Below are positions 1 through 42,205 of a DNA stretch of 64,000 nt, piece by piece; position 1 is the first letter of the stretch, and every line of letters starts with the position of its first letter. The DNA is from Botryllus schlosseri (lineage: Eukaryota): contig CM119371.1 in assembly GCA_051294905.1 (NCBI GenBank), forward strand, positions 1,676,001-1,740,000, given 5' to 3'. The notes under the pieces were generated by a model that made no database searches, was not told the origin of the DNA, and worked only from the letters and a program-made list of their open reading frames with translations. Made by a program: the position numbers and the translations under genes.

Positions 1-770
1 GGCGTCAATCCATGTAACCTAAAAAAAAACTGCGATGTTCCCTCCCAATCTAATGCTGGCTTGGCGTTTGGACTTTATTTCTCTATCGCTCTCTTCTGAC
101 CCACCTCACTATTCCGTAAAAACATTTCTGTTGTTACCTGACAGTTATTGAAAAAAGCTACTGAATCCGGCGGCAGACTAGTCTCCTTAAGTGCAACAGC
201 ATTTCTATCGTATATTTTTCGGAGGAAAAGGGGAACGGGGAACGGGGAGTTTTACTGTCGTTGTTGTTGCCGTCACGGTAGCTCGAGTTATTGCATTATG
301 ACGTAACCCTATTCTCAGAGAGTTTAACCTTAGGTCACGGGAAGGTGATGCGGCGACCATTCATTGCGTATAAATAATAAATAAAGTGATTGTGGGATGG
401 AGTAACGACAGAATTCAAATGCCCGGTTGATATCCATCCGCGACAGGGTTTGCTGTTGAGATGAGAATTATTAGGATTAGGATTTGGGAAAACAGGATTT
501 GAGAAATTATGGTGGATTAGGATTCTGATTGGATTTACTGATTTTCGGAAGATTGATGTCCTGTGGCGAATGGCGACAAAGTTTTTCGTCCTATCAAGTT
601 ACTTCATGGATTTTGAGCATTTTATCTATTTTTTACAGAATTATAGGCATTAGATATAGGCTTTCTAAGTGGAATGCTAAGTTTGAATCGGATTAGAATT
701 GGGACTAGAATTGTAGTAAACGGAATTTTTGGATCAGAAAGGATTTGATGAGGACATTTGATATCATGCG

Positions 771-1353
771 AAGGGTTGTAACCAAGTCCCACGACTCCGA
801 GTCACAAGTCAATGTCACTTTTATAGTTTTCACTCGAGTCAAGTCGAGTCAGTTTCAATTCACCACCGAGTCAAGTCCGAGTCCAAGTCATCGAGTTGGG
901 GGTCGAGTCCGAATCATGGTATTATGACTCGAGTCCGAGTCCAAGTCATTGTATTGACTGATCAGTTTCCAGTTAACGTCTTGTTAAACCCACTTTTTAT
1001 ATCTCTGTCTGGTGATATCGAATGGTTCGCATTTATAGTATACTGATTTCCTCACTTTTAGCAGTTTTCGGTCGCATTTTCAAGTACCAGTACGAATAGA
1101 CGACAGTGTCGTTACTTTACTATTCTTCGAAATTACAATGAAATGTCGGTCTTGGCCGTCTTAGTCTCGAGTCATATGACTTGGTTCGAGTCATGCGAAA
1201 TGACTCGTGTCCAAGTCGAGTCAATACACAGATTGACTCGAGTCCAGTCATTTCCGTATTTTGGGAAAATGACTCGAGTCAAGTCGAGTCATCAGTAAAT
1301 AGTGACTCAAGTCGGACTCGAGTCGAGTCATGACTCGAGTCATTACAACCCTG
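771..1353. mobile_element. hAT-type MITE, GACTCGAGTC-array family (copy 1), inserted into copia pol
   Basis: Termini (a)AGGGTTGTAA...TTACAACCCTG; subterminal arrays of the palindrome GACTCGAGTC; flanking duplication TCATGCG (764-770 / 1354-1360). Confidence 0.9.
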
Positions 1354-1947
1354 TCATGCGTGTATCAATGCATACGAATGTCGAAATATCCATTTAAATC
1401 AGGGACGAAACATGGATGAGGCGAGGTGGCATAATCGATACCGATTATGGGATACTCTACAAGCGTGAGCCGAATACAATTATGACGTATGCAGATGCTG
1501 ATTTTGGTGGAGATCGAGATGACAGAAAGTCAACGTCTGGATATGTAATAATGAAAAACAATGGTCCTATTGCATGGAGATCGAAAAAACAAACTGTAAC
1601 GGCACAGTCTACTGCTGAAGCCGAATTCATTGCGTTGAATCGCTCGAGAAACTGCATGGTTTCGTCAGTTGCATGACGAAATGGGGAGAAAGATTGATGG
1701 ACCAATCACAATATATGAAGACAATCAAAGTGCTATTGTTATGTCCAAGAATCCTGTCAATCACCAAGCAAACAAGTACATTGCAATAAAATTTGGTTAT
1801 ATCAAAGATGAACTTGATGGTGATAGAATTGAAATTCGTTATGTACCAAGTGATGATCAATTAGCCGATATCTTGACAAAGCCTTTACGTCGACAACCCT
1901 TCTGTTACTTGAGAGATAATATTGGTGTTACTCAAATGCCAGCATGA
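1354..1947 (+). pseudogene. Ty1/copia pol remnant (end of RT plus RNase H), frameshifted
   Basis: YADADFGGDRDDRKSTSGYV...PIAWRSKKQTVTAQSTAEAEFIAL then a frameshift to IYEDNQSAI...HQANKYIAIKF...VPSDDQLADILTKPL, which are canonical copia RNase H motifs. Confidence 0.95.
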
Positions 1948-2064
1948 TGAACAGTTAAAAATGTCCCAAGAGAAGGAGTGTTGAAAATGATAATTTGATA
2001 ATGCTTGAGACTTTGTTAGACTGTCGTAAATAATGTCTGCTATACTACTGTTTGAAGTGTTAGG

Positions 2065-2490
2065 TAGGCTTACCATACGTCCTCTTTTAAGAGGATTTGT
2101 CCTCTTTTTTTACTTTTTTGAAAGTGTCCTCGGAGGACGCCCTTTTGTCCTCTTTTTTGAGATTTTGTCCTCTTTTTTAAAAATTTAGGTCTGAAATGCC
2201 TCAAATTTGCACATAAGTGATGGTCCGGCGGATATTTCGGAGTGAAAAACGGTGAATTTAGCTCTGAGCGAAAAGATGACCTTTTTTTTTTTGTTAGTCA
2301 TCCACCCGGCAATGTGGAGAAAAGAACGGTATTTTGACCTCTGAGCGGAAGTGATGAACTTTTTTTTTTAGTCAACCGATCACAAAGTGGGAGAAATTCA
2401 CCGGTTTTTGAGAATTCTACTCCGGTTTTGCATCTTGCAAATTTCTGAAAAAGTGTCCTCTTTTTACATTTTCAAAATATGGTAAGCCTA
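2065..2490. mobile_element. hAT-type MITE, TAGGCTTACCATA family (copy 1)
   Basis: TIR TAGGCTTACCATA/TATGGTAAGCCTA; perfect 8-bp TSD GTGTTAGG; GTCCTC subterminal repeats. Confidence 0.95.
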
Positions 2491-2521
2491 GTGTTAGGTA
2501 ATATTTATTGTGTTGTGTTGT

Positions 2522-2843
2522 CACCGACGAGATAGCGTAATGGTAAAGCGTCTGGCATCTTGTCGGTAGGTCGTGGGTTCGATCCCCGGCCGGTCAGACC
2601 AAAGACCTGATTGGTAACATGACTTCCCTGCTTGGCGCTCATGCATTACTGGGATAGCATGGAGTGGTGGTACAAGATTTAGAAAGCCGTAAATGGCTAT
2701 ATCTGCACCTTTCTTGTCCTGTGACATATGCACATCATGCACTCATGATATGCATATGCGCAGATCGTTTGTATGTATATCATGAGTCGGTTTATATGCC
2801 CCAAAAAACATCGAGGACAAAAATAAATTACGTCCTTTCCCTT
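2522..2843 (+). mobile_element. tRNA-derived SINE (copy 1)
   Basis: A-box TAGCGTAATGG, B-box GGTTCGATCCCC, non-tRNA body, CTTTCC tail; TSD TGTTGTGTTGT / TGTTGTGTCGT; near-identical to 13604-13943. Confidence 0.9.
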
Positions 2844-3560
2844 TGTTGTGTCGTGATAATGCCGCGTATAATATCTGGCCAGTGTGCTTACCTCGTGGCA
2901 GAAGTTTTTAAGAAAGTTTCGAGACGTCGCCCGCTGTTTTGAACAGGTACGCTGTACAATACTCTGCTGTGTGTTGGACTGGTGTTTGGATAAGAATCTC
3001 AAGCCGCAGGTAGAACGGAGTAGATTCTGAGTTTTTCATCATAAAGCTGAACTTCGACGTCCCTTATTGTCTTTTAATTTGCCAGCATGCGTAACAATAT
3101 ATGATCCCCGCCACTACTGCAAAATAAATTGGACTCACCTAGCAATATACTAAACTACATTCGAACCTAGTATTCATAATCACTATTGGTTATGGTTACT
3201 ATGATGTCACAGCAGGCATGGTGTGTCAAGTGAAACTAAATATATAGCCTACAAGCTCGCGAAAATATATGTTATCCTACATTCATATTTACGTTTGAAA
3301 ATATTTCAGAGCAGCGTTATTAGTTAATAAGAAATGACAATTTGAATTACCCCCCGAAAATTGGTAAATTACCCCTTTTGGGGGTAATTACCCCCAGGTT
3401 AAGAACCACTGACCTAGGGAGTGATGTTGACCCGTTGGTAGTTGGTACTGGCTTGTCGCTGGCAAGGCTGCTGCTGGGATAGGTTCAGGCTGATAAGTAG
3501 GCCTATGTGTGCGTGGAGTGTCGTTACAGTTTGCTGTGCAGTGCATGTATTGGATATAGG

Positions 3561-4144
3561 CAGGGTTGTAATGACTCGAGTCATGACTCGACTCGAGTCA
3601 GACTCGAGTCACGATTTTCGGATGACTCGACTCGACTCGAGTCATTTTCTCAAAATACGGAAATGACTCGACTCGACTCGAGTCAATCTGTGTATTGACT
3701 CGACTTGGACTCGAGTCATGGCTCATGACTCGAACCAAGTCATTGACTCGAGATTCAGACGGCGAAGACCGACATTTCATTGTAATTTCGAAGCCAACAC
3801 ACTATTGGGATTTCGTTTGTTGGTACTGGTGCTTGAAAATGCGACCAGAAACTGCTAAAAGTGAGCCATATTGACATATTATAAATGCGAACCATTCAAT
3901 ATCACTAAACAGAGTTTAAAAAGTGGGTTTAGGAAGATTTTAACTGGAAACTGCGCAGTCAACACAATGACTTGGAGTCGGACTCGAGTCATAATACCAT
4001 GACTCGGACTCGATCCTCTGTTCGCTGACTTGGACTCGGACTTGACTCGGTGGGAATTGAAAATGACTCGACTTGACTCGAGTCAAAAATATAAAAGTGA
4101 GATTGACTTGTGACTCGGAGCCTTGTGACTTGGTTACAACCCTG
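3561..4144. mobile_element. hAT-type MITE, GACTCGAGTC-array family (copy 2, opposite orientation)
   Basis: CAGGGTTGTAA...TTACAACCCTG; perfect 8-bp TSD GATATAGG. Confidence 0.95.
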
Positions 4145-4397
4145 GATATAGGGGTTGTAGATCGTATGGGTTCCGTTATATGTGTCCGTGAGCAATGAGC
4201 ATCGCTATTATGAGTTTCTTGTGTAATATCAATATAATATTATAACCGCATACACTTGTGGTGTTGTCAGTGTCAGTCTCCACCGTGTATTGTGTAAGTG
4301 TCGTTTGAGCAGGCGGCAATCGCAAAGAGACGAGGTCCCGAGCCCAGTAACACATCCGCGTTCCTGTTATTTCTAGTGGTATACGCCGTTCGCCATA

Positions 4398-4537
4398 TCA
4401 TCCGCGTAAGCGGTGCCTTACAAAAGCCTAGAAGTGTATCGCGCTACAAATCGGCAATTAGGGAATTAAAATTAATGAATATTGGCCTGGTGCAAGTGAT
4501 CATTGTAGTCGTCAAGCACCATTAATACTACAAACAA
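4398..4537 (+). repeat. 3' segment of a retroposon with a CAAA-type tail (copy 1)
   Basis: CATCCGCGTAAGCGGTG(C/T)CTTACAAAAGCC...GTAGTCG; also present at about 18073-18205 and 57809-57960. Confidence 0.7.
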
Positions 4538-5009
4538 CATCCCAAAAAACAGCTCTTTGTTTTGAAAAATGTTGTTGAAACTTGACATATTGTCTTCAAA
4601 AGTAGTGATGAATATAAGTTGAGTTGACTTGACAAGGTGTGACGAGTCAAAAAGTATGGGGACCATCGGTCTACCATCTCCCAAACTTACGCATTTCCAT
4701 GTACAAATGCAGTGTACTCTTGAGACTGCGATTTCACCACCATACAGTAAAAAACTGAAAAAGCAATGAAAAATTGTGCTTGAAACCAGCTTTCATATTA
4801 TACACTACTCGCTTGAATATTTTTATAGGATTTTGAACAATTTGCATTCTAAATTGTGCTACGCTTGACCGCTTCCAGACCATCGATCAAATTTCGCCTC
4901 AATTTAACCTGTTACTATAGATAACTAAGGTAAACCGGTTTATACCGGTATATACTGTAATACTACACCGCATGGAATTTAATACCACATTGGAATATAG
5001 ACCTAATAG

Positions 5010-5235
5010 TAGGGATGGTGTGAACCTCTGATATGTTCAGGTTCGTGTGAACGCGAACATTTTTGAAAGGTTCTGTATGAACGCGAACTTGAACCTCATG
5101 ACGTCACGTGACGTCACATTGCTGATTCCAGCCCAACATTTCAGTGAAGTGCTGGCCTATATTAATGTACACGATACCTTGCGACGACTCGGGCCACAAA
5201 ATGCCACAATGCTGAAGTACATATTGACGTCTTAA
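5010..5235 (+). repeat. Interspersed repeat fragment (paralogue at about 13060-13190)
   Basis: Shared ATGACGTCACGTGA(C/T)GTCA...CACGATACC...GACGACTC.GGCCA...ATGCCACAATGCT. Confidence 0.7.
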
Positions 5236-6229
5236 ACGTCACCAAATGGGGCAATACTGGGGCAATCAAATCATATAATAATCCCATATAATCACTATCT
5301 TCCGTCGCTTTGGCAACAATTTCGACGAGGACTTGCAATGGAATATAAGCTTACGCCTAAACGGTGTAGGCCAAACTGGACAATGTATTAGGCGACAGAG
5401 TATTGCTACGTTGTTATTGAGCAGAGTGTAAAACTGGTTTCCTTCTGTACTTGCTACCAATATTACCCCATTACCAAGTTATACAGCTGTAGCCAACAAT
5501 CCAATCGCACGGATTCGGTTTTTATGATGCAATAAACAAATGAAGTCATGATTAACCCAGTACACCTGCTAGAATTTTTACATCAGACAACAATATCAAT
5601 TTCATTGATTGTTTGATTAAGCAACATTCGCTGAGTACATGTCGTGTATTTTTCTCTTGATGTTGTGTGATGGCGGGTCAAGCTCACAGCGGAGAGTCAC
5701 TAACGGAAAGCTGGACATTTCGAGAAAATTTTTGTAACAAAAAATACAACAAACATTTTTCAGATTGTCAAGGCTCGTTTAGTGTGGATTATTTTATGCT
5801 GCCAGCGCCTGGCCCGCAATTGAAATGCAATAAATTTAAACCAAAGATGTTATAATGAAGTGAAAATTCAATATTGTAGTATATGAAAAAGGTTCACAGT
5901 GCAGAACCTACCAAGGTTCAATTTTTCTATGCTGATTACGAATATGAAGTCGCTTTTTTCTCACCTCACGATTGTTTATCATCTGTGATTTAAAATTTTG
6001 CATTTCATTGCTAAAAACAGACTGTTCTGTGACATATTCCATGCTATTGGGTCATAGTTATATTGATTGTGACGTCATCGGAATATGTCAAAGTATTTAG
6101 GTACTCGAATATAAGTAGAAGTAAAAGTAACTTTTTATAAGTATGTGAAAAAGCAAGTATTCTAGGTCTAGTTTTTGATATCAGTATCAATTTATTAATA
6201 TCTTCTTCCTTTTAAAGCATCACAAGACT

Positions 6230-6790
6230 TTGATACAATGAAAATATAAAAAGGCGCCGAAATTACTTGGAGTAGTCTCTCCTACGCGATGTAAAGAAGA
6301 AGTTTGCACGGCACTCTGAATTAAAATAAACGACATTGAGGCTGTGAAGCATTTGAAAACAAACAAAAAAAACTTTAGAATTTCGTGTGCCAATGGTTTT
6401 AATAGAAACACAAAGACATGGAAAGATTGTTGCATTTGATCATGTGTTTTGGGGGGATTCAATGTCAGCAATGATCATAAAATTATATATCCAATTTGAC
6501 TTGCGCAATTCGACCGACTCCTCATGAGCCAGATGTCACAATTCCATTGCCTTCAAAATTTTTACCAATAGTTGAAGAAGATTCTCTCGGTGAGAGCCAT
6601 TGTCTGACGTATGTTCTCGGCCTGAGTGTGATGGTGATCAGCAGCTATATAGAGTTAAACCAGGCTGAGCTAAATATATTTGTCATAAATTTGAATTTTA
6701 CCAAAGGAATTTGGTCTTATTGTAGGTTTCAGATTAAAAGCCAGACGTATTCTCGGCACTAATACCTCGCCTCCGAACCCTCTTTTGTCT
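6230..6790 (+). pseudogene. Decayed DNA-transposon transposase N-terminus, Sola2-like
   Basis: Across frameshifts: FRVPMVL..HG/KDCC..SCVLGGFNVSNDHKIIYP/LTCAIRPTPHEPDVTIPLP...NQAELN...LNF.K.../FRLKARRIL, resembling the PMVWREP..H..DCYFC...YPNLPSAIRPVPH...QxELNDL.RDL motifs recalled for Sola2-type transposases. Confidence 0.7.
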
Positions 6791-8718
6791 ATTGTGTCGT
6801 TGTTCAAGGTCTTATAGAGACATTGGGAACTGTGAATTGCGATTCTTATTCAGGCATCAAGCATCAAAGCTAATTTGTCACACAATACAAATCATTGTGC
6901 GTCTATCTCCGTATCTGGTACAACTGAAATCAAGGGGTCCTACGAGCAGGGCATGGTATGGTATGGAAGTATGGTATGGTATGGATCGATATTTTGGTAT
7001 GGAATATGGAACAATGCAAGTATGTTATGGAATGGAAGATTTTAATCTATGGTATGGAACGACATTTCCTTACTTCCATACTTTGGTATTTTATACATTT
7101 TATTGTGATCAGTGCAAGCTTCATGAAGCGTAAGTTGTTCGCTGTTCATGGAATACGATCGCTTTTATTATGTGTGAACGTGAACTACAGTATTGAACAC
7201 TGTGTAGGAACAGATACACGCTTGTGCAACGGATTTACAAGAGCACTTGGAATGACATGATTTTGTGATGTAATAACGACAGCAGTAATGTTGATCCGAT
7301 TTTCTACAACTCTAGACACGACGTCTCCGACGTCTATCATGTTACGCAATAATTGGAAAATTAGGCAACTCCAACTACCTCATTCTTTAAGTGACGACAG
7401 CTTACAAACAATCATGATGCAACGTACTAATTGCTCAATGTGATTGATAATTACATTTCCTCTGCAACATTGTCCGCATGTCCGCACATTTACACTATTT
7501 ACATACCGAGATATCTTATTGGTCATATTTCAAACGCTCTCGCATTAGGATTATAGATCAGGGAGTGGGGTAGATATAGTTTGAAATTGTCCGTCACGCT
7601 AACCCCAACCAAATAGTGTACTAATAATCACACAGATCGTTGCAATATTGATCGCCTGCAGCTGGGATATTTTATGGGTTCGTTTAAATCAGTGGTTTCC
7701 AACGTGGGCGATAACGCCCCCCATGGGGGCGATTTGGCGGTCTAAGGAGGCGAAAATAACGAAGGGGGCGAAAACGGACGAAGGGGCGACAAGGGGCGAC
7801 AACAACGAAGGGGGCGATGGCGCGTTAAAACGACTTTATTGGAGTCGGGACCGTAACTACCGCATCCCAAACCCCCCAATTGGGGATGGGGGCCCGAAAC
7901 CGAAGGAAGCCCAGAATTATTTCGTGAATTAACATGAATGATAGAGTAATTTTTTTTAAATTCAAGCGACTTTTTCAAAAAATTTTCGCGATTTCATATT
8001 TTAATGAATCTTGATGTTGGGGTCCCCGTCACCCAACAAAAATACGCATGATTTATGGAAATGGGAGACTTCGGCGTCGGCCATTACTGTGCCACGACAC
8101 CCAATACATATGTAGTTAGAGGCCATGTAACATGCGACTCCTAGGTGGCGGAACGATCAGCAGCGAGAGTACCTTGGCCGAAAAGGAATGCCCTTGTGCT
8201 GACCGAAAACTTCGATATATATAAATATATGTTTAAGTGTCCATAGGCTGGCGTCGAATGTTCCTGTCCTGGCGATTTTTTGACGATTTCCATATCTTCT
8301 GACATAGCAGATATTGGAGGTCACGAAATAGCATCATATAAAGAAGTCAATATAACAACGATTCCGCCAGAAGATGTTTTAACAGGGTTGTAATGACTCG
8401 AGTCAGACTCGAGTCACGATTTTTTTGTGACTCAACTTGACTCGAGTCATTTTCTTGAAATGGGAAAATGACTCGACTCGACTCGAGTCAATATTTGGAT
8501 TGACTCGACTTGGACTCGAGTCATTACGCATGACTCGACCCAAGTCATTGACTCGGCTTATTTTATATGACTTGAAGATGAAGAAATTTGCTAATCGTAA
8601 TGGCTAGATCAACGCATCTGACGAATTCTGCCGACACCGCTATTTGTCGCCACTGCTTTCGTTGCATTCGTCTGATATCAGATATGCCACCGTAAAAACA
8701 GCAGACAATGGTACATAT

Positions 8719-9224
8719 CAGTGATGAGCATCAGAGCGGAGTCGGAGTGGATTAGGAGCGGAGTTTTGCCGATTTTGTGACAGTCGGAGCGGAGTCGGAG
8801 TCTACTACAGATATTTTTTCGGAGAATGTCGGAGTATTGTAACTTTTGTCTCCGATATCTTTGGATAGCTCTGACCAGAATACACTATTGATTATGATTA
8901 CAAACCAAAACGCAGACAGTTGACACCTTGTAAAGTTGTAATATGACGGGTAACACGCAAAAATGATTACCAAGTGCATAAAAATTAGACATCTGCACTG
9001 CAATTGGGGGCTGGAGGGTAAACAATACTATGAGTCAACCACATTATCACATGTACCACGTGTACCATGTACCATGTTTGCCACTGTTTCGGATACTTGA
9101 CGAGATTCATCGGAGTATGTCGGAGTCTGGGATTGAGCTCTTCGGAGTCGGAGGGAGTTTTCCTCAGACCCTAAAGTTGTCGGAGGGATTCGGAGTCTCG
9201 AAAAGCACTATCCGCTCATCACTG
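8719..9224. mobile_element. hAT-type MITE with TCGGAG repeats (innermost nested element)
   Basis: TIR CAGTGATGAGC/GCTCATCACTG; perfect TSD GTACATAT. Confidence 0.92.
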
Positions 9225-9355
9225 GTACATATAGTCGCAATGCATTTCACAAAATCATCCAGTGATGAAGAGGTAATAGATCCACCGCAATCAAAGTACT
9301 CAATACTTTTCAATTATACAAACAATCGAAGCAAAGTTCAAGTAGGGCCTATGAA

Positions 9356-9560
9356 ATGACTCAGATGGTCAAGTACTTGGAAGAGACTGATAAGCTCACG
9401 TGTAGCTTTGAAGGTGTTAATTCTTTGCATTATTGGGCGACCAGAAATAATAAGTATCCAATGCTCTTCAATGTGGTTCAAAAATGCTTGTCAATTCCTG
9501 TATCTAGTGCACCAGTGGAACGTGTTTCAGTAGATGTGGCTTTATTCTAAGGCCATGCCG
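9356..9560 (+). pseudogene. hAT transposase C-terminal dimerisation domain remnant
   Basis: YL...NSLHYWATRNNKYPMLFNVVQKCLSIPVSSAPVERV(FS), a typical Dimer_Tnp_hAT signature. Confidence 0.9.
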
Positions 9561-30090: not shown

Positions 30091-33000
30091 AAATATAGAA
30101 CAGCGTTTCTCTACCTTATCAGCTTGTGTAACGATAAAATATCCAAAAATCAAGTTCAACACAGAATGTAATGACGACAACATCATGCAATTTGAAACAA
30201 AGAATCTTAACATTATTCAAATGAGAAATTTGCTACTGTCCGTTTGATATCACACCCGTTATATGAGGTCTCATTGAAGCCTCTGAGAGACGGGATAAAA
30301 CCAACAACTCACTTTTGACCATTTGGTTTATTTTGGAAGAAACGCGACCAAATGTCTGCCGGATATATAATACTGTCAAACATTGCTATTTTGGTATTTT
30401 AGAATGTCCTCAAATTTCGGTAAGTATTTATGACTCATGAATGGTCTTTAACGAGTTGTAGGCTACTTTCAAACACGGTACAGCAATTGAAGCATTGTTC
30501 GCTGAAGACTTCCAGGTTAGCATAAGGTATCTTCAGGTTAGAAAAGGTTAAGAACCACTGCTCTAGTCATTTAGTATACTACCTCGATGATAGCACATCA
30601 TAGAAAACACACATATTTCAGCAGAGAAGTTGTATCCAGTGATAATCAGTTTAACGATGGACTTGTGTCATAGCTATGAATGGAAATTGTTAACATGACG
30701 GATCGAATATTCTGAACCGATGCTACTTGTTCGAGGTTCTTATGCGAGGACAGTAGTTCTTAACCTTTACTAACCCGGTGAACCGTTACATTATTCTGAA
30801 AGCATTAGGAGAACCCCATATTTTTGGCAAGTCACTAACAAGCTACCAGGTAACACATCTAATGCACTACCGTACTATAGAATACTAGTCCACTAAATCA
30901 ATTTTGCATTACCATCACTGTTGAAGGAAAAAAACATATAACATGATGATCACACAGCATATATTACAGTAAATGATTGAGACTTCTGCTGTATGAGTCT
31001 GGTTCAGAATGACTTGGACAACTGAATAATTCTGGTTGTTTGATATCACTAATTATACGAAAATGTCAGTAATATAATTCTAACATAATTAGTGAAATTT
31101 TTCTTTGCTCTAATTCTAATCTAATTTCTTAATTCTAATGTATTTTCTGGTCCATCCAGAATTGCTACAGGAGAACTGTGCCGTGCAAAACGAGTCGAGC
31201 ATAGTGTGCAGACATTTGTCAGCGTCATGCTTATGAGAATAAGGTCTGATATGATATGAACTGGACTTTATTCCATGTCCAAGCTTTTGCAAATTGATTA
31301 ATTCTAATTACAATCTAATTTGGTAAAACTGTGTAACTATGTAACTTGAAGTCTGGTCTAATTTGAAAAAAAACGGTACAGTTATAATTCGAATTCTAGT
31401 CTAATTTGGAAAAGAAAAAAAATGTGCAGCTGCAACTCTAATTCCGATCTAATTTCGAAAACCTGAAAATCATGTAGTTGTCCATGTCTGGCTCATAAAA
31501 CCCCTGCGGTAATCGTATGAGCCCTTGTTAGTAAGCACCGCTCCAAGGTAAAATACAAAGCATGCTATCAGTTGTGATTCTGACACACCTTAAACTTTTC
31601 ACCGTTCACACTTCTAGGAAGATTGTCAAAATAAAGTCAAGTTGCAGAGAGACATTAGGATTTTTTCTGTTAGGCCCGTTTGGCATTGTTGATCTTTTCA
31701 CGTTTCTTCCATTCTATTGCGTTGAGACCTAATGCGGCTCGCGTTCCTACACAAAAAAAAACACATCAGGTCAGTGTAGTCAGCATTGCAATTTACTACA
31801 AGTGTTAATCGGATGTGCCCAGCAAACACTGAACCGTAAAAAAACCTTTCGGGATGGTTTCGAATGGTTATTTTAGGGTTTCGATTTTTATGTTTCAGAG
31901 GTATGTTTAAAAAACGTAGGAAAAATGATCTTGAAGATCAAATTATTCTGTATGAATTCCAATTTGGTGGTAAGTATTCTGATGTGGGAAGCTATTTGGA
32001 ACCTGTAGATACCGTTGCGTTTTGATAGAGTGCTGCCATCAGTATAAATTCGTGTTACTTGGTCGAAAACCCTATTTTCTGATTTACCGTCATCATTATA
32101 TACAGCCTATATTCATTGTCTCGTGAGTCTCGTCTGTTTCGCTAGCTGAGCATGAATTCCAGTTTTATTCCGAGTAAATATAACTAAATAAGTCGAATGG
32201 GTGCACTTAACTGTACGTGGTTATCCGAGCGTAACTTCTAGATTATTCTGGAAATTTGAACCGCGCTTCGCGCTTCGTTCGCGGAATCGCGGGATGACTG
32301 TTTCGGAATGTGGTTGTAGTTGTGTATGTTAAATTCTGGAAGCTGGAATTGCGACTGGTACCGGGTGTGGGTAAAAACTAGCTGTACGGTACATAGTTGA
32401 GCGAGTAATATGCTATTTTGAAGGAATACCCTGTAGTTTATGACTCCGAGAGCTGTTTGACTTGCTGCAAACAGTTCGAAAATTACGTCTATTTCGGTGG
32501 CAGTAATAATAATAATACAAGCATTTTCAGCTATTTATAACATTATAATGTAGCATGTTATCAGGGACAATCACCGTACCGGACTGCATACTATATGGGT
32601 TGCTCAATGGCTTGGTCGTCTGCAGTTATCCACGTAAGTTTCTAAAATTATGCTTATATGAGTCATTTTCGTATCATATTATGATAACATACCGTAACAT
32701 GTAGGGGATTATATGACACGGCCTACTGGGTATAATCTTAGCGCTGGCGACCAGCTGTACCAACTACTTTTTCACTGATTCCTAAAATACTAATTAAAAT
32801 CTCGTCCGGGCACTGAAACCCCCTAAAATCTCCCACAAAGTTGGAAATTTTCATTTTACTGAACAATAGGGGCGCCCGAGCTGAATGCCGATTAACATTT
32901 GGTACGCACGGTACCGATTGTGACGCCATGCCATTGAGCGTCTCGGCGAAGTCAAGCCGTGCTCCCGGTGAGGCCGTGACCCTCTGAGTATGTTGCTAGA

Positions 33001-33257
33001 GATTGATGTGATGCCAATATACGTCCTATTCGAGTAGTTTTAGTATTTCGCGTCGTAGCGCATTTACAAATTTGAGAATACAAATGATAGCACTGAAGCC
33101 AACGCATATTGTAGAATTTACTATCAACATCAACGTGTACTTATTTGAAGCTAGCTGGCCAATTTACAAAACAATTATATAGTTCCATTCGGGTCTTGAT
33201 GGTTCCTAAATTTTATTTGAATTGGCAATATTGGAACGTAGTTTTAGGTGTTGCAAC

Positions 33258-33431
33258 CAATGTTCCCTGTAAGCTGCTCAAGTGTGCAAATGCGACATGC
33301 TGACACCGTATCTGGGCACAGAAAATTTAAGCTGCGCACAAAACATCAAAGTGATGACCTTTTTTTAGTCGCTACGCACTGTTGTCCAAGTTGAGTGCGT
33401 GAAGACTCTTGAAAAATTGGAGGGAACATTG
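33258..33431. mobile_element. Small hAT-type MITE
   Basis: TIR CAATGTTCCCT/AGGGAACATTG; TSD GTTGCAAC/GTTGCAGC. Confidence 0.88.
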
Positions 33432-33734
33432 GTTGCAGCTACTTTGAGTTGGTTGCATCGCATCAATCACTGTAAACGCGAATACGTCCTAAAATGCAAG
33501 TAGCCTACTTTCATATTTTTTGTCGCGCATATAAAAATTTGGACAAATAGAAATGAGAACACACCAGTTATTCTCTGCGATTAACCGACTGATTAACAAA
33601 ACGGCTCATTCTCATAATTCATTCAGCTAAGTCCTAAACGGCATCCCAACCAAACCAAAAATGGCATAAACAGTGGTGTGTGATCTAAGTGGTTTTAGGC
33701 CGCCATGTTTTGATCGGCGTCGCAGATATCGCAA

Positions 33735-34840
33735 ATGTATGATTTCAAACTGCCGAACATCCCAATTATAGGTACAATTTATCTATCTATGATGCACTAT
33801 AAACACTGGATTTCGTTAATTAGCCTGTTATGCGCAGAGAACACCTAGTGTGTTATCGCACTGGTGTCTCATTCACATTAGAACTATGTTATAATATTGT
33901 CAGTTCCGATGAAATTTATGACCCACAAAGAGCCGAATGGATTCATCTGCTACGTGCAAGGAAGTACGCATCTATATCGAATTCCGCAGTGATATGCGTA
34001 GGTAGGCTGCATTTGTATAATCAAAATTCGTGGATGCGCGATGATGCGAAATGCAAAAACTACTCGACGTATTCGGGTCACATTGAATTATATGTCGCAA
34101 AATACTCTGACAATCATGGGGAACACAGCTCGACTTTGCCGAGACGCTTGTTGGCGTCACAGTCGAAAAGAGACTTTATTCGACTATTGTCTACGGGCGA
34201 TACAATTGTTAGAAACAATGTAGATTCGGACATTGAGGGTTATTTTCGGGGGCTTCCAGTGGCCGGACCAAATTTTAATTTATATTTTCGAAATCAATGT
34301 GACAGTAGCTTTCGATTGAGACCGGTTCAGCAAAATTTTGAGCTCGAGTTGCCAGCGCTAAGATTACCACCTACTGCTTTCGATTTCAGAAACAGCAGCA
34401 CTGATTTTTTTCGGAAGAGCAAGCAGATGCGTAAGAGCTGGCAAAATTGGTAAACTTCTTGACCGGAAAGTGAATTAAACTGTTCTACAAAAAGATTGTA
34501 CCGCAGGTATGAGGCTGAATATTTCTAATACTTCTGAGACTTATGGCTAGCAAAACAAGATATACAATTGCAGTTTAAAGTTCATCCAACGCAGAAGCAA
34601 CTTCCCACTTGGCAGACCGGACTGTCACAATATCACATTGAGACGATCGCAAAAGTGGATTATTCCCTCGGTATGTCTAGAATTTTTAACCGGACTGACT
34701 TTGATAATTATAATGATATCAAAAACTCAATCTCAAACCAAGTATCAATCTTTGATTCGTGGATGTGAAGCAATAACTGCAACTGCTGTACCCAGAATCC
34801 CTCAATAGAGTTCTTTAGAGTAATGAGGTATCTTCAGTAA
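33735..34840 (+). pseudogene. Decayed, apparently intronless ZU5-UPA-death domain (UNC5CL-like) coding sequence
   Basis: Longest ORF in the window (33830-34453, 207 aa) plus flanking frames: TIYLSM..(18)..LVCYRTGVSFT...YDP...EWIHLL (ZU5-like); IRLLSTGDT...IEGYFRGLPVAGP...LYFRN (UPA-like); LSQYHIETIAKVDYSLG...FNRTDFDNYNDIKNSISNQVSIFDSW (death-domain-like). Confidence 0.5.
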
Positions 34841-36839
34841 CTTGAGACTATATTTTCATGCTTTGCGGGGATAGTTATGTGCACTAGATTCATTTTAATA
34901 TTCTGAAAACAATGTGGGGGTCGAATATCCGCATTTTACTTTCATGACCAAAAGTATTTAAGAACCCCTGTAGATACGATACCGCCATATTGTATATTTT
35001 GACTCGCGTCAAGTCAGGTTAATCGATTTTCGAAGGTGACTCGAGTCAAATCTCTCGATTTTTGTATGTGACTCGAGTTGAGTCAAAATTCAAGTCAAGG
35101 TGCCTTTTCGTCGTATGAGGCATGATTATGTCATTGCATTTTGCTAGCTGTCTGAAACAGATTGAGCGGTAATTGACTCTGAGCCAATGAACGAATATAG
35201 AGTTAAATATACGCGCAAGAAGACGCTGTATCGCTCACATATACGCAGAACTGTTAAACTGCGTAAGTTATTGCACAGCCTCAGTTTATAGAACTTCTAG
35301 AACTGGTAACTTTACCAGCCAAAATAGAGAATAGAGAAATAAATTGATAAGATGCAATACATTACCCTTTTACAAACAGATATGATACACCATGCGTTAG
35401 TACAACGACGAAGCCGTTTCTGCTAGTGCGGAATAGTGTTGTTGCACACAGGCGAATAGCTTATTTTGAAAAAAGCAATAATTTGAAACTGACATCAATT
35501 TCAGCATTCAACCGTCAGCCACGTGTTGCACATCTATCCGTAGATTAGTTATCAATACCTATATCTATAGCTACTGTTCGGTCAACTGGAAAGTTACACA
35601 GCACATTGCATTGAAATAGCAGTGACGTAACGTTAGCAGTCTTCTCACAACTTTTCTGCAATCCTAGTTAAAACTCCAGACTCAAAGCAAGAGGCTTGGA
35701 TGCATGATGATGCATTTTTGTTTTACTTCTAATCCAATTCCTGGTTTTCCTGTAAAGGCGACTGTAGGCCTATTGTGTGAAACAAGCCAAGCTTGCTGTA
35801 CGGTACAGACATTTGCTATTCTCATGTCCTTAATAAGAATGGACCATGATTTGGAACTTGATGCGATGTCCGAGTTTTCTCGAATTTAGTCATTTTAATC
35901 TAATTTGTATACAAACTGTAGCTATAATTCTAATTTAAATCTAATTTGCAGACAACTGCTGTGTAGCTATAATCCTTATTCTACTCTGATTCGGAAATAT
36001 ATCTAACTGTAATTCCAATCTAATCAGGAAAAGCTAAAATATTTCTAATTGTCCAAGTCTTTTTGTGAAGTCCTTGTCGGGTATGATCGTTGCACTTGAA
36101 TAATTCTGTTTGTATATTATGATTTCAGATAGCTGGATTCAGCTCAGTTGGAGGCGACACAATTGGCCAATCTGTCAGATCCATCATGAAAAAGGTCGCT
36201 ACTACCCGTGTGTGGAGCAGTTACAGCCGTGTTGGAAAATCTGGGAAGGAGGCTTTTAACAAGCTCGCGTTATACAAGATCATATATAGTGAGCAACATT
36301 TATGTTTACCTTCGAACCTATCTATATGTGTTCAGTAGCCTACCTTACACCCCATGTAAATGTTGAGCTAGCTCAGTGGTTCTCGAACTTTTTTGACAAG
36401 CTACCTTGACAATAGCTAAAATTTTCGCCACCACCCCTTTATCGTCATATCAAAAATATTAAAACGAGCAGCCAGAATATTAGCGACCCCAACACATTGT
36501 TTGGCGGCATGCAGGGTATTCTGGCTACACTATGTTACCAGCCTGAACTATCGCGTCTCCAGTAGGACTGTCGTGTGTGCGCAGCGTGTGCGAATGTTAG
36601 CCTGACCGCGGACTTTAGGCTGTTGATGACTAAAATATCAGTTCCGACATGTTGGCGTAGCCAGGAGCCATCTTTGTATATGACCATAAAGTAGAATATC
36701 TCGTAAAGGATTTATTTGTCTTGATATTTTTTTAGCGCTGCGCTCGATTTATTGCCAATCGTTTTCTTGCTTTTAGTATTGGTGTCTCCTCCTGAAACGT
36801 CTTATTTACGGAATTGATATTAGCTATATTGGCAATTAT

Positions 36840-37740
36840 GCGAGAACGTGTCGTCCAACATACGACTTCGCGTCTGCACTCGCGAAAAGATCGTCGGCGA
36901 TGAAACCTTTGCACAAAGTGATAGACGCACTTTCACTGAACTCTTCGATATTGATACGTCCAAGCGTTGATTAATCATGTCCTGGCCAAATGAGCCCAGC
37001 AGTTTACAGCGTCGACCCACAATATATGCAACTAACAATGTTTTATTGACCTAATTCTTTCAATAACTTTAATAATATTTTCGCGCTTTGCGCGACTAGG
37101 ACATGTTTTCATGACATAATTGTTAACGATTTTGATGTGTGGTAATATGAGTCCTTTTTTACCGTCACCTATAATCCGGTTCGTTCCTATCGAACGACTA
37201 AAAAAGCACATCAACATTCAAGTGGCCCACGCAATGGTTTGGAAATCTCATGTGGCCCGTTGGCCGAAAAGGTTGGCCACCCCTGATGTACGGTATCAAT
37301 AAATTTTTGTCAATCATTATTCAATCGATTAACCAATTCAGTGTCATGGTTCAGTTATTCAAATGTAATACGATGTAATGTTATTCAACAGAATGTTATG
37401 TAATTTAACATTGCAAGTCTATTATGGTTAGTGCAGGGGTGGCCAATCGTTTTCAAAAGTCTATTATGGTTTGTGCAGGGGTGGCCAACCCTTTCAAATT
37501 TTTTCAAAGTTCACGAAACAATTAGGTCAATGAAATAATGTTAGTTACATATATTGTGGGCCGTCGCTGTATACCGCTGGGCTTATTTGACCAGGACATG
37601 ATTAATCAACGCTTGGACATATCAATATCGAAGAGTTCAGTGAAAGCGCGTCTATCACTTTGTGCAAAGTTTTCATCGCCGACGATCTCTTCGCGAGTGC
37701 AGGCGCGAAGTCGGATGTCGGACGACACGTTCTCGCATTC
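36840..37740. repeat. About 215-bp inverted repeat formed by two tail-to-tail hAT element ends
   Basis: 36840-37055 is the reverse complement of 37520-37737; termini GGTTGGCCACCCCTG (37285) and CAGGGGTGGCCAA (37434, 37476). Confidence 0.9.
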
Positions 37741-38428
37741 CATTTTGCTGGGTAAAAGACGGATTAATCGGTCATTTATCTTCAATCAAATAATATAAAG
37801 TTAAATATAAATGCAAAAGGCGTTTTATCACTCACACGTAGAACTGCTAATAGCATATGTGAGTAACTTTATAGCTACACGCTACGTTCTATTATCAGCC
37901 AAAATAGAGGATCGAATACGAAGCCTCGAGAAGTTGCAATAAATTGATAAGGGACAATATACTACCCTTCCGTGAGAATAGGGACGCATAGACAGTATTC
38001 GTTCGATTTAAATTATACAGGAGAGTTGGTAAAAGATAGCACCGCGCAATTTAACCACTGTGCTGTCTGAGAAACAAAGATACCTTGCTAACAGAATAAA
38101 CTACTACTACGACGACAACGCAAGCATAAGCTGTGACCGTTTCGTTTGCGGTCAATTAAATTATGATGTAACAACAGGATCAGTGAAAGGTGCGATCAGT
38201 GAATGGCTGTTTGCTCTCACAAGTGATACCGGCATATCGCAAAAAATCCGAACGTACATAAGATATAGGGTGATTTAATTGACACCGTTTACTTGATTAC
38301 TTGAAATTGACTCGTGAATTTTACTCCGAGTCACGAGTCAATCCATACATCTCGAGCGCCGAGTCGAGTCAAGTCATTTTTGCAAAGTGACTCGAGTCAT
38401 CCCAACACTGCGTAGTACTAAGAGCTAT

Positions 38429-38635
38429 CTAAACAGGATCGAGCATGTCTTTAACATTCAATGTTGTTGTTTCTCTGTAGGGTTCTATGGGGAAAAAGGC
38501 AGAAAGCAGCGTCTTATCCTCGTCATCAGAAGATGAAGAAGACACATAATCAGTTGGCTTGATTATTTTTTCATTGGCTTCTTTGACATCGTTTCGTTCT
38601 GAATTATTTTCTTTGAGTTTCGTTGACATTGTTTT
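38429..38635 (-). other. Possible start-codon exon (MSTKLKENNSERNDVKEANEK...SSSSSDDED)
   Basis: TACAG acceptor 6 nt upstream of ATG, hydrophilic/acidic 66-aa frame; ends next to a MITE terminus. Confidence 0.35.
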
Positions 38636-40153
38636 CTGTATGAATTATAAGTTCATCAAAGGTAATGTGTACTGTGTTACGTGTATGTGTCCGCAGCCAC
38701 CCTCAGGTATGCCTAAATATGGGAATACAGGGATGTTAGTATCTCAGGATGTTTTTCTGACCATCGATTGTACGTTCTGAAGCATTGTAGATACACAGTT
38801 TTATCTACGTTTTATTAACGAACCCGATTTGCGTGAAGAACGCGTTAAAACGCGTCGACACAAAAACCGACTTAAAACTATCCTGCTAGTCTTTAATATG
38901 AACCAAATAAAAACGTTTTTTTAACCTCAATGGGCTGTTTCGTGTTTGCTGGGTGGCTACTTTCGAAGTAGATTCTCGATTAGAGTAAAATGATTCACAC
39001 AATACACAGGAAGAATCATGGAAACCACTTTCAACTACAACGACACAGGGGGCTGTAACTCAGTAAAATAGGTGCTGTAACTTAACTCAAAACTACTCTG
39101 TAGTTTTCAAAATCAAAATGCAATAGTAAGTGCCGTAGTTTGGTCGTGAAGTAGAATTGGAAGCAGTCATAACATAACCAATTTAATTAGTTACCGTTAT
39201 ACTAAGCAAAACATACTAAAAAGTTTTAGGAATCAAAATGGAGTCAAATGCCATCCAAGCGGAAGCAGTAATCTTCACAGCAAACAAAAACTTCATGTTG
39301 AGTGAAAATGAGCTTTCAAAGTTGGTATATGATAGTTGCAAAAATTAGCTAAAATAGTTGAGAATCACTGGGTGATATGAACTCAAACGGGAACTGTACC
39401 TCTCGGATACTATGATGATTAATTATGATAAAAATGTACGAGAATGGGTTTTTGATAAAAATGTGTTACATGATACCATGCCATAGACTGCAGGTCTGTC
39501 AGATATAATACAATTTTATACATCGATACGCTAGTACAGTGCTTTTCAACCTTTTTGAACACCATCAGCACTTTTTCTGCAAGATAAATTTCATGGCTAC
39601 ATACCAACCGAAAAATGTTATACAAAAAGAAAATGCAGATACTTAACAAGATCTTGTTTATATGTGTAAGAAGTAGGCGACTGGTTCAGGCTATTAAATT
39701 TCTCATTAAAAAGACCACTCTATTTCGTAGTTTCGATTTCAACTATAGTGCACTAAACCCTTTTCGGCGAAATAAGTGTTCAGTTTTGTACAAGAACTTC
39801 TAGTGCTTGGATATCCAGGTGTTTATCAGAACCATCCGGCACTCCTATCCAGAATACAGCGTCTTTTCCTTGTGCAAAAAAAAAAGTTTCCGACAAAGGT
39901 CTCACAACCTCCAGTTCGTCGAATGGCTGCAAAACCCGCATGTCTGTTTCAATGCTTCTCTCACATGACTTGGAAAGTGAGCCCCAAAACTAACATGAAG
40001 AATAAGCACATATGAGCTGGATACCTTGTGATACGCTGATATACAGTGACCTTGGATATATAAAAACAATCTGCAAGAAATTCCACAAATTTTACCTGCA
40101 TATTATCAGACCACTTAGGTGGCGTGGAGACTCAAAATTATACCATTTGCAAC

Positions 40154-42205
40154 CAAGGGCGTAGCCAGAAAAAATATTTGGGGGCGGCGAAAAATTCGAT
40201 GAAGTAAATGACCCCCCCCCCTTAAAGATAAGGAAAAAATAGGTAAAATCGATGGACTTTGGCGCTTATTGGATGATTAACACAACATCTGGGGCGGTCG
40301 TTGTATATTCCACTCACAGACGGCTGTCCACTCACAGACGGCTGTGATCAAATGGTGATTGTGGAAAACCAGGACGACAACACTTTCGCGCGAAGCGCGA
40401 AAATTTTTCATGGTTAATGAATGAAATTGGTTCATTTTATTGGTATTTGCATATTGCAAATACGTTTTCATTATCACATTTACCGGCAGGGCTGATAGAA
40501 GTGGTGTCATCAAACATTCAGCGGGCAATTAATTATACATCTTGAGCAATATGTTCATACCACACGGCAAGACTATTTAGAGTTTCTAGAGCAGGGTGTC
40601 CAAAGGGCCACATGAGACTTACGAACCATTGCGCGGGCCACTTGAATGGTGATGACCTTTTTTAGTCTTCCGATAGGAGCGTACCGGATAATAGGTAACG
40701 TTGAAAACAATACTTATATTATACGCATCAAAATCAATAACAATTATGACATGAAAACTTGGTGTCGATCCCCGGCCTAGCCGCGCGAAATATTGTACAT
40801 TATAAAGTCATATACGACGATCTGCGAAAATGTGGCTGGCCCCTGGCTACGCCAATGCGTCGGAACTCGGAACTGATATTTTAGTCGGCAAAATCCCAAA
40901 TTTCGCGGTCAGGCTAATCAAATTTTGGTTATTCGGTTTTGGTGATTTATTTTTTGATAATATCAGTAATTTCGAGAATGAACCGCGGGCCTCTCAAAAC
41001 CTTCTCGCGGGCCATAGGTTGGCCGCCCCTGTTCTATAGAGGGTGGACGCCGGACGGGACAGTTGTCATTTATTGCTGTTACTTCATGACTTGCGTAGAA
41101 TGCTGTCACCACTCAAGAGATCGAGCACACGCAAGGTCGTAGCCAGAAAAACAATTTATTTGTATTTTGTTTGGGGGGGAAGTTATGACTTTAGGGGATC
41201 TCTCCCGTGGGAACATCTCGCAGAACCGTACATCCTGCCATAGGCAATTTCATCACTACCCTTTATACATACGATTCTTAGACGCACACACACACATACT
41301 CTATGGAAGCTTCCAGTTGCCAACTATAGCTTGTATTAGGCGGTCGTTGCACGGACGAGCCCAAATCGATGACATAAAGTGATGAACAATCAGTGTGAAT
41401 TTCGGCCCTAGTCACGCGGAGCATAAATGTTTTTGAAAAAATTTGATCAATAATATTGGTACGTCTATATGAGCAAGTGGTGTCCATTCTTATTACTCCG
41501 TTGAAGCACGGTTTGGGCGTAACCTCTGGTAGAGATTGACGCTACTTTAAAGATTGAAATCGCTGATACATACCCAACCATAAATTAAAAAACTCCTTTG
41601 ATCAGACTCGTTCAATTTCAAATTAGCAATTTTTAACGGGAGGTGGTGATATTTTCCTGTGCCAGTTGCGTTTATGTTGGAGGGGTCTGATTGCAGGGAC
41701 AGGATCATTAGGTGCCAGCTATTCAAGCACCCGAAAATCTATATCGAAGGCTTCGGAATACATGGGTCGGTTTTATGGTCGTCAATCATTTTGGGAGCGC
41801 ACTTTGCGGAGTCGCATGTAGCCTACTTTATATATCTTCGTGTGTCCCAGAACGGAAGTTGCCGGAGCTAACAGTCCCCAACCCCCATACTGAACTGACA
41901 CTCCTACAGATTCAATCAACCCAACGACCTCAGGCTACTCTAGTGCATCTACTGGTGCGGTTGTATTCTCATAATTGAGAATGCAGCTAAATTCAATAAT
42001 GGGTATTTGCGGAATAATTTTTTTTCGTGATACCGACATTAAAATTAAGACATGAACGGACACTAAATCGCGCGAAGCGCGAAGAAAAATTTTAGGTTGC
42101 ATACATTTGCCCCAAAATACTCTTAATATCTCTTGATTTTACGAAAATTTTCAAAAAATTTGGGGGGGGCGACCGCCCCTTTCGCCCCACCTGGCTACGC
42201 CAGTG
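40154..42205. mobile_element. hAT-type element (GGCGTAGCCAG termini)
   Basis: CAAGGGCGTAGCCAG...CTGGCTACGCCAGTG; perfect TSD TTTGCAAC. Confidence 0.9.
40592..41031. mobile_element. Nested Buster-like MITE
   Basis: CAGGGTGTCCAA...TTGGCCGCCCCTG; TSD TTCTAGAG/TTCTATAG. Confidence 0.8.

Follow-up and report, generated by a model that had tools for sequence, protein, structure and literature searches.

A 7.1-kb CCCAG-terminated element of Botryllus schlosseri as a probable member of a young non-autonomous DNA transposon family

Results and Discussion

The element and its copies in the genome

A 64,000-nt stretch of the Botryllus schlosseri genome (assembly GCA_051294905.1, contig CM119371.1, positions 1,676,001–1,740,000 of the forward strand; hereafter the window) contains a 7,136-bp element, on both ends of which the same 12-bp terminal inverted repeat (TIR), CCCAGCAAACAC, was found without a mismatch. 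The dinucleotide TG abuts each end on the outside, as for a target-site duplication (TSD). Inside lie a nested Merlin-type element, an inverted-repeat module, a spliced transcription unit and the longest open reading frame (ORF) of the window, whose coordinates are collected in Table 1. The first-pass annotation of this DNA had described the perfect TIR, its TG flanks and an enclosed length of 7.1 kb, all of which were reproduced exactly, and had proposed that the interior carries a captured death-domain gene. The following analysis indicates that the element is, with good confidence, one copy of a young family of approximately 45 non-autonomous transposons with a non-coding interior.

The two ends exhibit hardly any likeness to each other past base 12, and each was used separately as a probe against the assembly of 495.5 Mb. 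Among the best 40 of 43 first-look candidates for the left end (201-nt probe), 31 of the 39 non-self matches start exactly at window position 31818 and 4 start one base earlier. Similarly, among the best 40 of 48 candidates for the right end, 22 of the 39 non-self matches finish at 38953 and 9 finish one base later. The 43 and 48 first-look candidates give the family size of approximately 45 copies. Twenty loci with paired ends were fetched and compared with the window copy, of which 10 aligned in one piece across element positions 1–7136 with an identity of 98.0–98.7%. Another 9 retained both ends together with internal insertions or deletions, and the last was a diverged partial copy. Since the full 7,136 bp is colinear in other loci, the two ends belong to one element, with which the interior travels. 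It had been considered that the two CCCAG ends might be independent short elements with host DNA between them. A TIR of 12 bp and a TSD of 2 bp could indeed arise by chance in a single copy (3.77 matches are expected at up to 2 mismatches); however, the colinear recurrence in 10 other loci with different flanks, and paralogous target sites that lack exactly the element and one TG (see below), leave this explanation a negligible probability.

Identical 2-bp flanks were observed for 20 of 20 elements (the window copy and L025–L043), namely TG, GG, TC, GC, CT and AA once each, TA five times, AT three times, and GA, TT and CA twice each. Four further complete elements with the same terminus carry GC, TT, AG and AC, so that 24 of 24 complete elements have matching flanks of 13 different dinucleotides. 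The expectation that other copies would share the ends and the interior and differ in the TSD was thus borne out. The 11 full-length copies are 98.66–100% alike in pairs (mean 99.04%) and deviate by 0.31–0.72% from their majority sequence. Two of them, L031 on contig C7 and L033 on contig C2, are identical over 7.15 kb, yet their flanks and TSDs differ. Such near-identity indicates that transposition was very recent, and on sequence grounds it may be continuing. The family of long non-autonomous DNA transposons in this genome is hence very young and probably still mobile.

Table 1. Features of the element and its immediate borders, in window coordinates.
Feature	Position	Strand	Remarks
Whole non-autonomous transposon	31818–38953	+	7,136 bp; 10 colinear loci; 11 near-identical copies
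Left TIR, CCCAGCAAACAC	31818–31829	+	Exact 12-mer; start shared by 31/39 genome matches
Right TIR	38942–38953	-	Exact 12-mer; stop shared by 22/39 genome matches
TSD TG, left copy	31816–31817		Uninterrupted paralogous sites carry one TG
TSD TG, right copy	38954–38955		Read directly outside the right TIR
Nested non-autonomous Merlin-type element	32729–34368		1,640 bp; arms ~32729–33246 and ~33879–34368, ~78% complementary
8-bp duplication flanking the nested element	32721–32728 / 34369–34376		GCCTACTG / ACCTACTG; 7/8 bases match
209-aa open frame, judged a chance frame	33824–34453	+	No homologue, no codon-position bias, crosses the nested element's end
Transcribed exon, ends at GTGAGC donor	35968–36288	+	RNA depth 82; upstream limit undefined
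GT..AG intron	36289–38480	+	2,192 nt, removed in RNA; junction reads and splice sites read
Inverted-repeat module	36838–37738		Arms 36838–37080 / 37496–37738, 243 nt, 90% complementary
Last exon	38481–38925	+	RNA depth 262 at 38400–38703; 3' end inferred from AATAAA

Insertion site and uninterrupted target sites

The DNA on either side of the insertion (31440–31817 and 38954–39330) is part of an older repeat with at least 30 matches, most of which fall within 0.2–3.8 Mb of contig C1, with further copies on C21 and C32; a single match deviates from the common orientation. Some of these copies adjoin matches of another repeat (L047:5280–6816). A same-orientation array over 4 Mb is unlike the pattern of a dispersed transposon. 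At 16 places of the assembly, matches of the left and right flanks overlap by exactly 2 nt, TG, which indicates that the flanks are contiguous there with one TG between them. In addition, reads or contigs of three public runs (X5, X7 and X24) place 38953 next to 31814, with 3 bases at the joint ambiguous. The element and one TG, exactly 7,138 nt, are omitted, leaving ...GGATGTGGCTAC...; both the paralogues and the reads thus contain the empty site predicted at first reading (...GGATGTG/GCTAC...). The skip had been taken for an empty allele, and this was withdrawn in view of the 16 uninterrupted paralogues. Paralogues of 90–95% likeness occur, and the read placement accepted 95%; hence, the reads were not counted as a segregating empty allele.

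A short AT-rich repeat (units such as TAATTCTAATCTAATTT) occupies 31106–31465 in the left flank and 35890–36036 within the element, and produces many spurious joints in the read placement. Runs labelled with four other organisms (B to E) hold 0.55–0.61 of the words sampled from 30800–39900, and run X10 (organism D) yields contigs of the element with 18 differences in 2,500 nt and without the flank. The runs may represent this species, differently labelled, or relatives with a near-identical element.

Nested and interspersed repeats in the interior

The recognisable part of the interior consists of other transposons and repeats. The inverted repeats detected as I3, I4, I8, I10 and I23 together make up one diverged inverted repeat, which begins with GGTATAATCTTAGCGCTGGC..., finishes with ...GCCAGCGCTAAGATTACC and is flanked by an 8-bp duplication. 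Its arms match the last 320–350 nt of a repeat read at locus L048 with 72–76% identity (E = 2.5e-62 and 1.8e-51). Many genome copies of the L048 repeat finish at the same base, and its last approximately 440 nt occur in both orientations, which identifies them as a long TIR. A DDE_Tnp_IS1595 domain (E = 1.3e-16) is present in the 461-aa protein that the L048 repeat encodes. Merlin elements, which we take to correspond to the IS1016/IS1595-type enzymes, generate TSDs of 8–9 bp. The nested element shares with this superfamily both the 8-bp flanking duplication and long TIRs homologous to the ends of an element with an IS1595-type transposase, and was assigned to it on these two features. As differences, it lacks a transposase, and complementarity between its arms reaches only about 78%. 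The nested copy is present in the full-length copies of the family, indicating that its insertion predates the spread of the family.

The inverted-repeat module in the right half is built of another interspersed repeat, which also occurs twice in the related element L049 and at window positions 40600–40917. In several bins (e.g., 33232–33535, 35056–35359 and 38096–38399), the word depth in runs X5 and X7 exceeds the family level by a factor of 4 to 150, and it is raised at this module as well, which points to further high-copy repeats. A tandem-repeat scan of 31000–39800 revealed three short tandem repeats, and neither an RNA family of Rfam nor a tRNA was found in the same interval.

The 209-aa open frame

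The 75 ORFs of at least 40 aa (stop to stop, 31700–39100) gave no match to any Pfam family at E ≤ 0.01 and no recognisable transposase, in agreement with the first description of the interior. The longest stop-to-stop ORF of the window, one of 18 with at least 110 aa, does lie inside the element as stated there, and encodes 209 aa. It had been interpreted, together with a second exon, as a host ZU5-UPA-death-domain gene that a Pack-type element captured and spreads, i.e., a transposon route to death-fold expansion. Apart from its length, the frame has in its favour that 12 of 19 other copies keep it open at 209–212 aa; in plants, CACTA elements are known to capture genes. However, a Pfam-A scan of the ORF at E ≤ 1 found no family, and no homologue was found among 5.8 billion clustered proteins at E ≤ 0.01. 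A phmmer search of the PDB at E ≤ 10 found no ZU5, UPA or Death chain, returning only designed Kelch repeats over approximately 20 residues. The Atlas recognition value of 1174 is within the range of shuffled sequences and hence not protein-like. As no ORF has a Pfam match, the element contains no ZU5, UPA or Death domain at this threshold, and the remainder of the window, with 214 further ORFs of 62 aa or more, yielded none either.

The variation among copies is also at odds with a captured gene. Changes within the ORF in the 11 full-length copies are distributed over codon positions 1, 2 and 3 as 10, 7 and 8, and variable columns amount to 25 of 627 in the ORF versus 261 of 6,553 elsewhere in the element, both 4.0%. 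The frame is shorter or absent in 7 of the 19 other copies, and the pattern as a whole is that expected for a neutral stretch with 1% divergence. The RNA depth over the ORF is 0.2–2.5, against 82–262 on the transcribed exons, and no ORF of the element shows coding evidence. Furthermore, the ORF begins close to the inner edge of the nested Merlin-type element's right arm and ends 85 nt past position 34368, thus crossing the end of the nested element, which a captured gene would not do. It was therefore judged a chance open frame across that end. A Pack-type element is recognised by host-gene fragments inside it, and nothing of this kind was recognisable here. With no recognisable gene, and with the ORF evolving like the surrounding non-coding DNA, nothing supports Pack-type capture, and we regard it as very improbable. 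The claim of a transposon that spreads a death-fold signalling gene is accordingly removed, and the family is an ordinary addition to a known kind of transposon, without a death-domain cargo. The case also illustrates that chance can produce a long open frame across nested insertions.

Transcription from the right half

The right half of the element gives rise to RNA. A raw single-cell cDNA run contains 298 reads, with 48 start places, in which 36288 is followed directly by 38481, and the sites at this joint are a donor TATATA|GTGAGC and an acceptor TCTCTGTAG|GG, both on the + strand. An AATAAA signal is located at 38906–38911, 42 nt before the right TIR. The family is thus a source of spliced RNA, which is probably polyadenylated. 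These canonical sites, junction reads and signal are what one would expect if the element carried a functional gene, whether coding and spread over several exons or acting as a non-coding RNA. Against this, no frame is open beyond approximately 55 codons across the junction, none of the ORFs has a Pfam match, and the reads come from one 3'-biased library and may derive from any of the approximately 45 copies; a functional gene is thus improbable. No RNA run holding this stretch was listed among the indexed runs. The transcription unit is read as non-coding, either a remnant, perhaps of an ancestral gene's 3' end, or a transcript that arose fortuitously.

A larger group of elements with the same terminus

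The exact 12-mer CCCAGCAAACAC occurs 597 times in the forward and 627 times in the reverse orientation (1,224 in total), compared with 10 and 15 (25 in total) for the control, for which the pattern was read backwards. Among the first 100 places, which are all located on C1, + and - occurrences pair up at distances from 2.1 to approximately 22 kb, the commonest spacing being approximately 5.66 kb. Four other kinds of element with this terminus were examined, namely L050 (5.66 kb), L052 (7.94 kb), L049 (9.9 kb) and L046, of which only the left end was read and which is 74% like the window family over 351 nt. The 12 bp and, at most, a diverged subterminal sequence are common to these elements and the window family, while their interiors are unrelated. 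Each complete element among these other kinds carries a 2-bp TSD. Approximately 600 elements, which fall into five or more unrelated long families, are therefore bounded by the 12-bp terminus. For genome annotation, it marks approximately 600 elements that would otherwise be mis-called as genes or unique sequence.

No transposase frame was found in L046, L049, L050 or L052. The 298-aa and 202-aa frames of L046 match no Pfam family, the former having no homologue, and L050 and L052 contain no long frames. These four, together with L045 and the diverged C3 copy L044 + L051, were tried as the autonomous partner, and none is autonomous. The longer relatives are the same kind of passenger with nested P-type, LTR (long terminal repeat) or pogo-like insertions. 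A pogo-like DDE_1 frame lies inside L045. The copy L044 + L051 (C3:21150514–21162650) contains a 4.7-kb P-type element on the reverse strand (394–5114), with a 35-bp TIR starting CATAG, a 7-bp duplication AGCTGAG, and long frames all on one strand with one weak THAP match (E = 0.002). In the same copy, another 1.8 kb replaces element positions 545–4356. L049 (C1:14820474–14830436) holds at 6523–9526 a nested 3-kb element with two identical 288-nt direct repeats (LTRs), the sole content of which is a gag-like frame of 704 aa that is intact (DUF1759, E = 2.4e-9). Elsewhere, relatives have frames of 1,900–2,100 aa, and the nested element looks like a very recent gag-only LTR element.

Classification and the transposase acting in trans

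The assignment to EnSpm/CACTA-like elements made at first reading stands as the best fit among known superfamilies, in the form of a non-autonomous element of the CACTA-Mirage-Chapaev (CMC) kind that is moved in trans. We lean, by a modest preference, towards a CMC transposase as its source of mobility. Because a partner transposase was not found and the CCC terminus fits by half, it is solely the TSD length that decides this superfamily call. A short TSD without sequence specificity, of 2–3 bp or, in the wider clade, 2–5 bp, is a CMC feature, and the 24 of 24 elements with their 13 dinucleotides show it. The 5'-CAC(TA)...GTG-3' termini are absent, and 5'-CCCAG...CTGGG-3' was read in every element examined, so that CCC and CAC agree at positions 1 and 3 only. 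A wider CMC consensus, CMCWR, which CCCAG would fit, was reportedly given by Yuan and Wessler in 2011.

The family was compared with described systems. CMC-related lineages have TSDs of 2–5 bp and mostly 5'-CA..TG-3' termini (PMC12730594), and Repbase sorts non-autonomous elements by the length of the TSD and the outermost 11 bases of the terminus (PMC4455052). The CACTA element ENS1_Cis of Ciona savignyi resembles the window family in its tunicate host, short TIR and 2-bp TSD. In contrast, ENS1_Cis and its relatives, compared here by their description (PMC6004678), have invariable 5'-CAC...GTG-3' termini, unlike the 5'-CCCAG...CTGGG-3' of the window family, which has no transposase.

In plants, non-autonomous CACTA elements have long heterogeneous interiors, share only the termini with the autonomous element and receive the transposase in trans. 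Their TSDs are 3 bp, they start with CACTA, and they have subterminal repeats, short-repeat arrays being typical of plant CACTA although not universal. Gene-capturing plant CACTA elements are thus like the window family in heterogeneous interior, shared termini and supply in trans, while the window family differs by its 2-bp TSD and CCCAG start, with no subterminal repeats found among exact words and no captured gene fragment detected.

A different enzyme could also be responsible, such as one of the ISL2EU (PHIS) type or of an undescribed lineage that recognises 5'-CCCAG. ISL2EU elements, like the window family, are animal DNA transposons with a 2-bp TSD (PMC4482050), and TSDs of 2 bp are also within the range of Harbinger relatives (PMC12730594). 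DDE_Tnp_4 genes number in the hundreds in this genome (891 first-look candidates), and CCC departs from the CAC of CMC termini. However, the TSD of ISL2EU is always AT, within A|AT|T, and its TIRs usually begin with GG, whereas the window family has AT in only 3 of its 20 TSDs and TIRs that start with CCC. Autonomous ISL2EU copies encode a DDE/HTH/THAP transposase and a YqaJ-domain protein (PMC4482050), neither of which was seen in the window family. Moreover, on C1 up to 23.6 Mb, no DDE_Tnp_4 match lies inside any listed +/- pair of the 12-mer. Movement by a non-CMC enzyme is hence unlikely, though it deserves consideration.

Movement by a CMC-like enzyme would proceed as follows. A DDE transposase supplied in trans would bind the 12-bp terminus and excise the element, which would be reinserted at a cut with a 2-nt stagger, the repair of which would leave the 2-bp duplication. 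The passenger is non-coding DNA loaded with nested repeats, including the Merlin-type element, the inverted-repeat module and several high-copy repeats, and carries one + strand transcription unit whose last exon has its AATAAA just inside the right TIR.

Several observations tell against parts of this reading. The terminus is 5'-CCC instead of the 5'-CAC or 5'-CA..TG described for CMC elements (PMC6004678, PMC12730594). A search for exact words in the two subterminal regions of 500 nt revealed no 9-mer with three or more occurrences. The search for an autonomous partner of the CCCAG-bounded elements yielded none; on C1 up to 23.6 Mb, no CMC-like transposase match lies inside a listed 12-mer pair, nor does the DDE_Tnp_4 type mentioned above. 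A tblastn search with two CMC-like transposases and their second ORFs found no remnant in five CCCAG-bounded loci. These searches score the best candidates only, so that such an absence is weak evidence either way, and a genome search with PF02992 gave no match while its controls were equally silent. As for the non-coding interior, a working transcription unit in part of the element is evident from the spliced RNA, and a small product or upstream exons are possible, the joints examined being the best 15 of 101. The current mobility is read from identical copies in the assembly, and the empty-site reads may stem from paralogues and not from alleles.

The genome does contain many CMC-like transposase genes, with at least 54 and at least 56 matches to two queries. 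Among them are intact genes in several copies on other contigs, e.g., four identical copies of 818 aa. A further interpretation is that the approximately 600 CCCAGCAAACAC-bounded elements are moved by none of the recognisable CMC-like or Harbinger-like genes and represent a distinct, still active lineage with a 2-bp TSD and 5'-CCC termini, its members being almost without exception long (5–15 kb) non-coding passengers, some with their own spliced unit. We consider this doubtful and hold to the CMC-like assignment as the better fit. If the transposase is found, the family could give a natural large-cargo (at least 7 kb) cut-and-paste system from a chordate relative, which is a prospect only.

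Transposases at other loci and a hAT remnant

Two loci with weak matches, L047 (Plavaka) and L048 (Transposase_21), were tried as partners and rejected, the 12-mer being absent at both. The one readable end of the L047 element is unlike CCCAG. On the minus strand of L047 (C1:2674000–2681000), positions 1506–4022 encode an 839-aa CMC-like transposase, of which two intact, 98%-identical copies (C1:203902–206406 and C3:32646376–32648880) and another at 91% were found. At least 5,277 nt of the DNA around L047 is common to its two 98%-identical copies. On the reverse strand of L048 (C5:15213000–15220500), the Merlin-type element (1–3262) adjoins a CMC-like element (3267–7501), which encodes an 811-aa transposase (weak Transposase_21 match, E = 1.6e-4) followed by a 317-aa second ORF. 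Within the window itself, a 93-aa frame at 9269–9547 (+) contains a hAT C-terminal dimerisation domain (E = 5.3e-10). The frame is what remains of a hAT transposon, and no other clear protein domain was found in the window.

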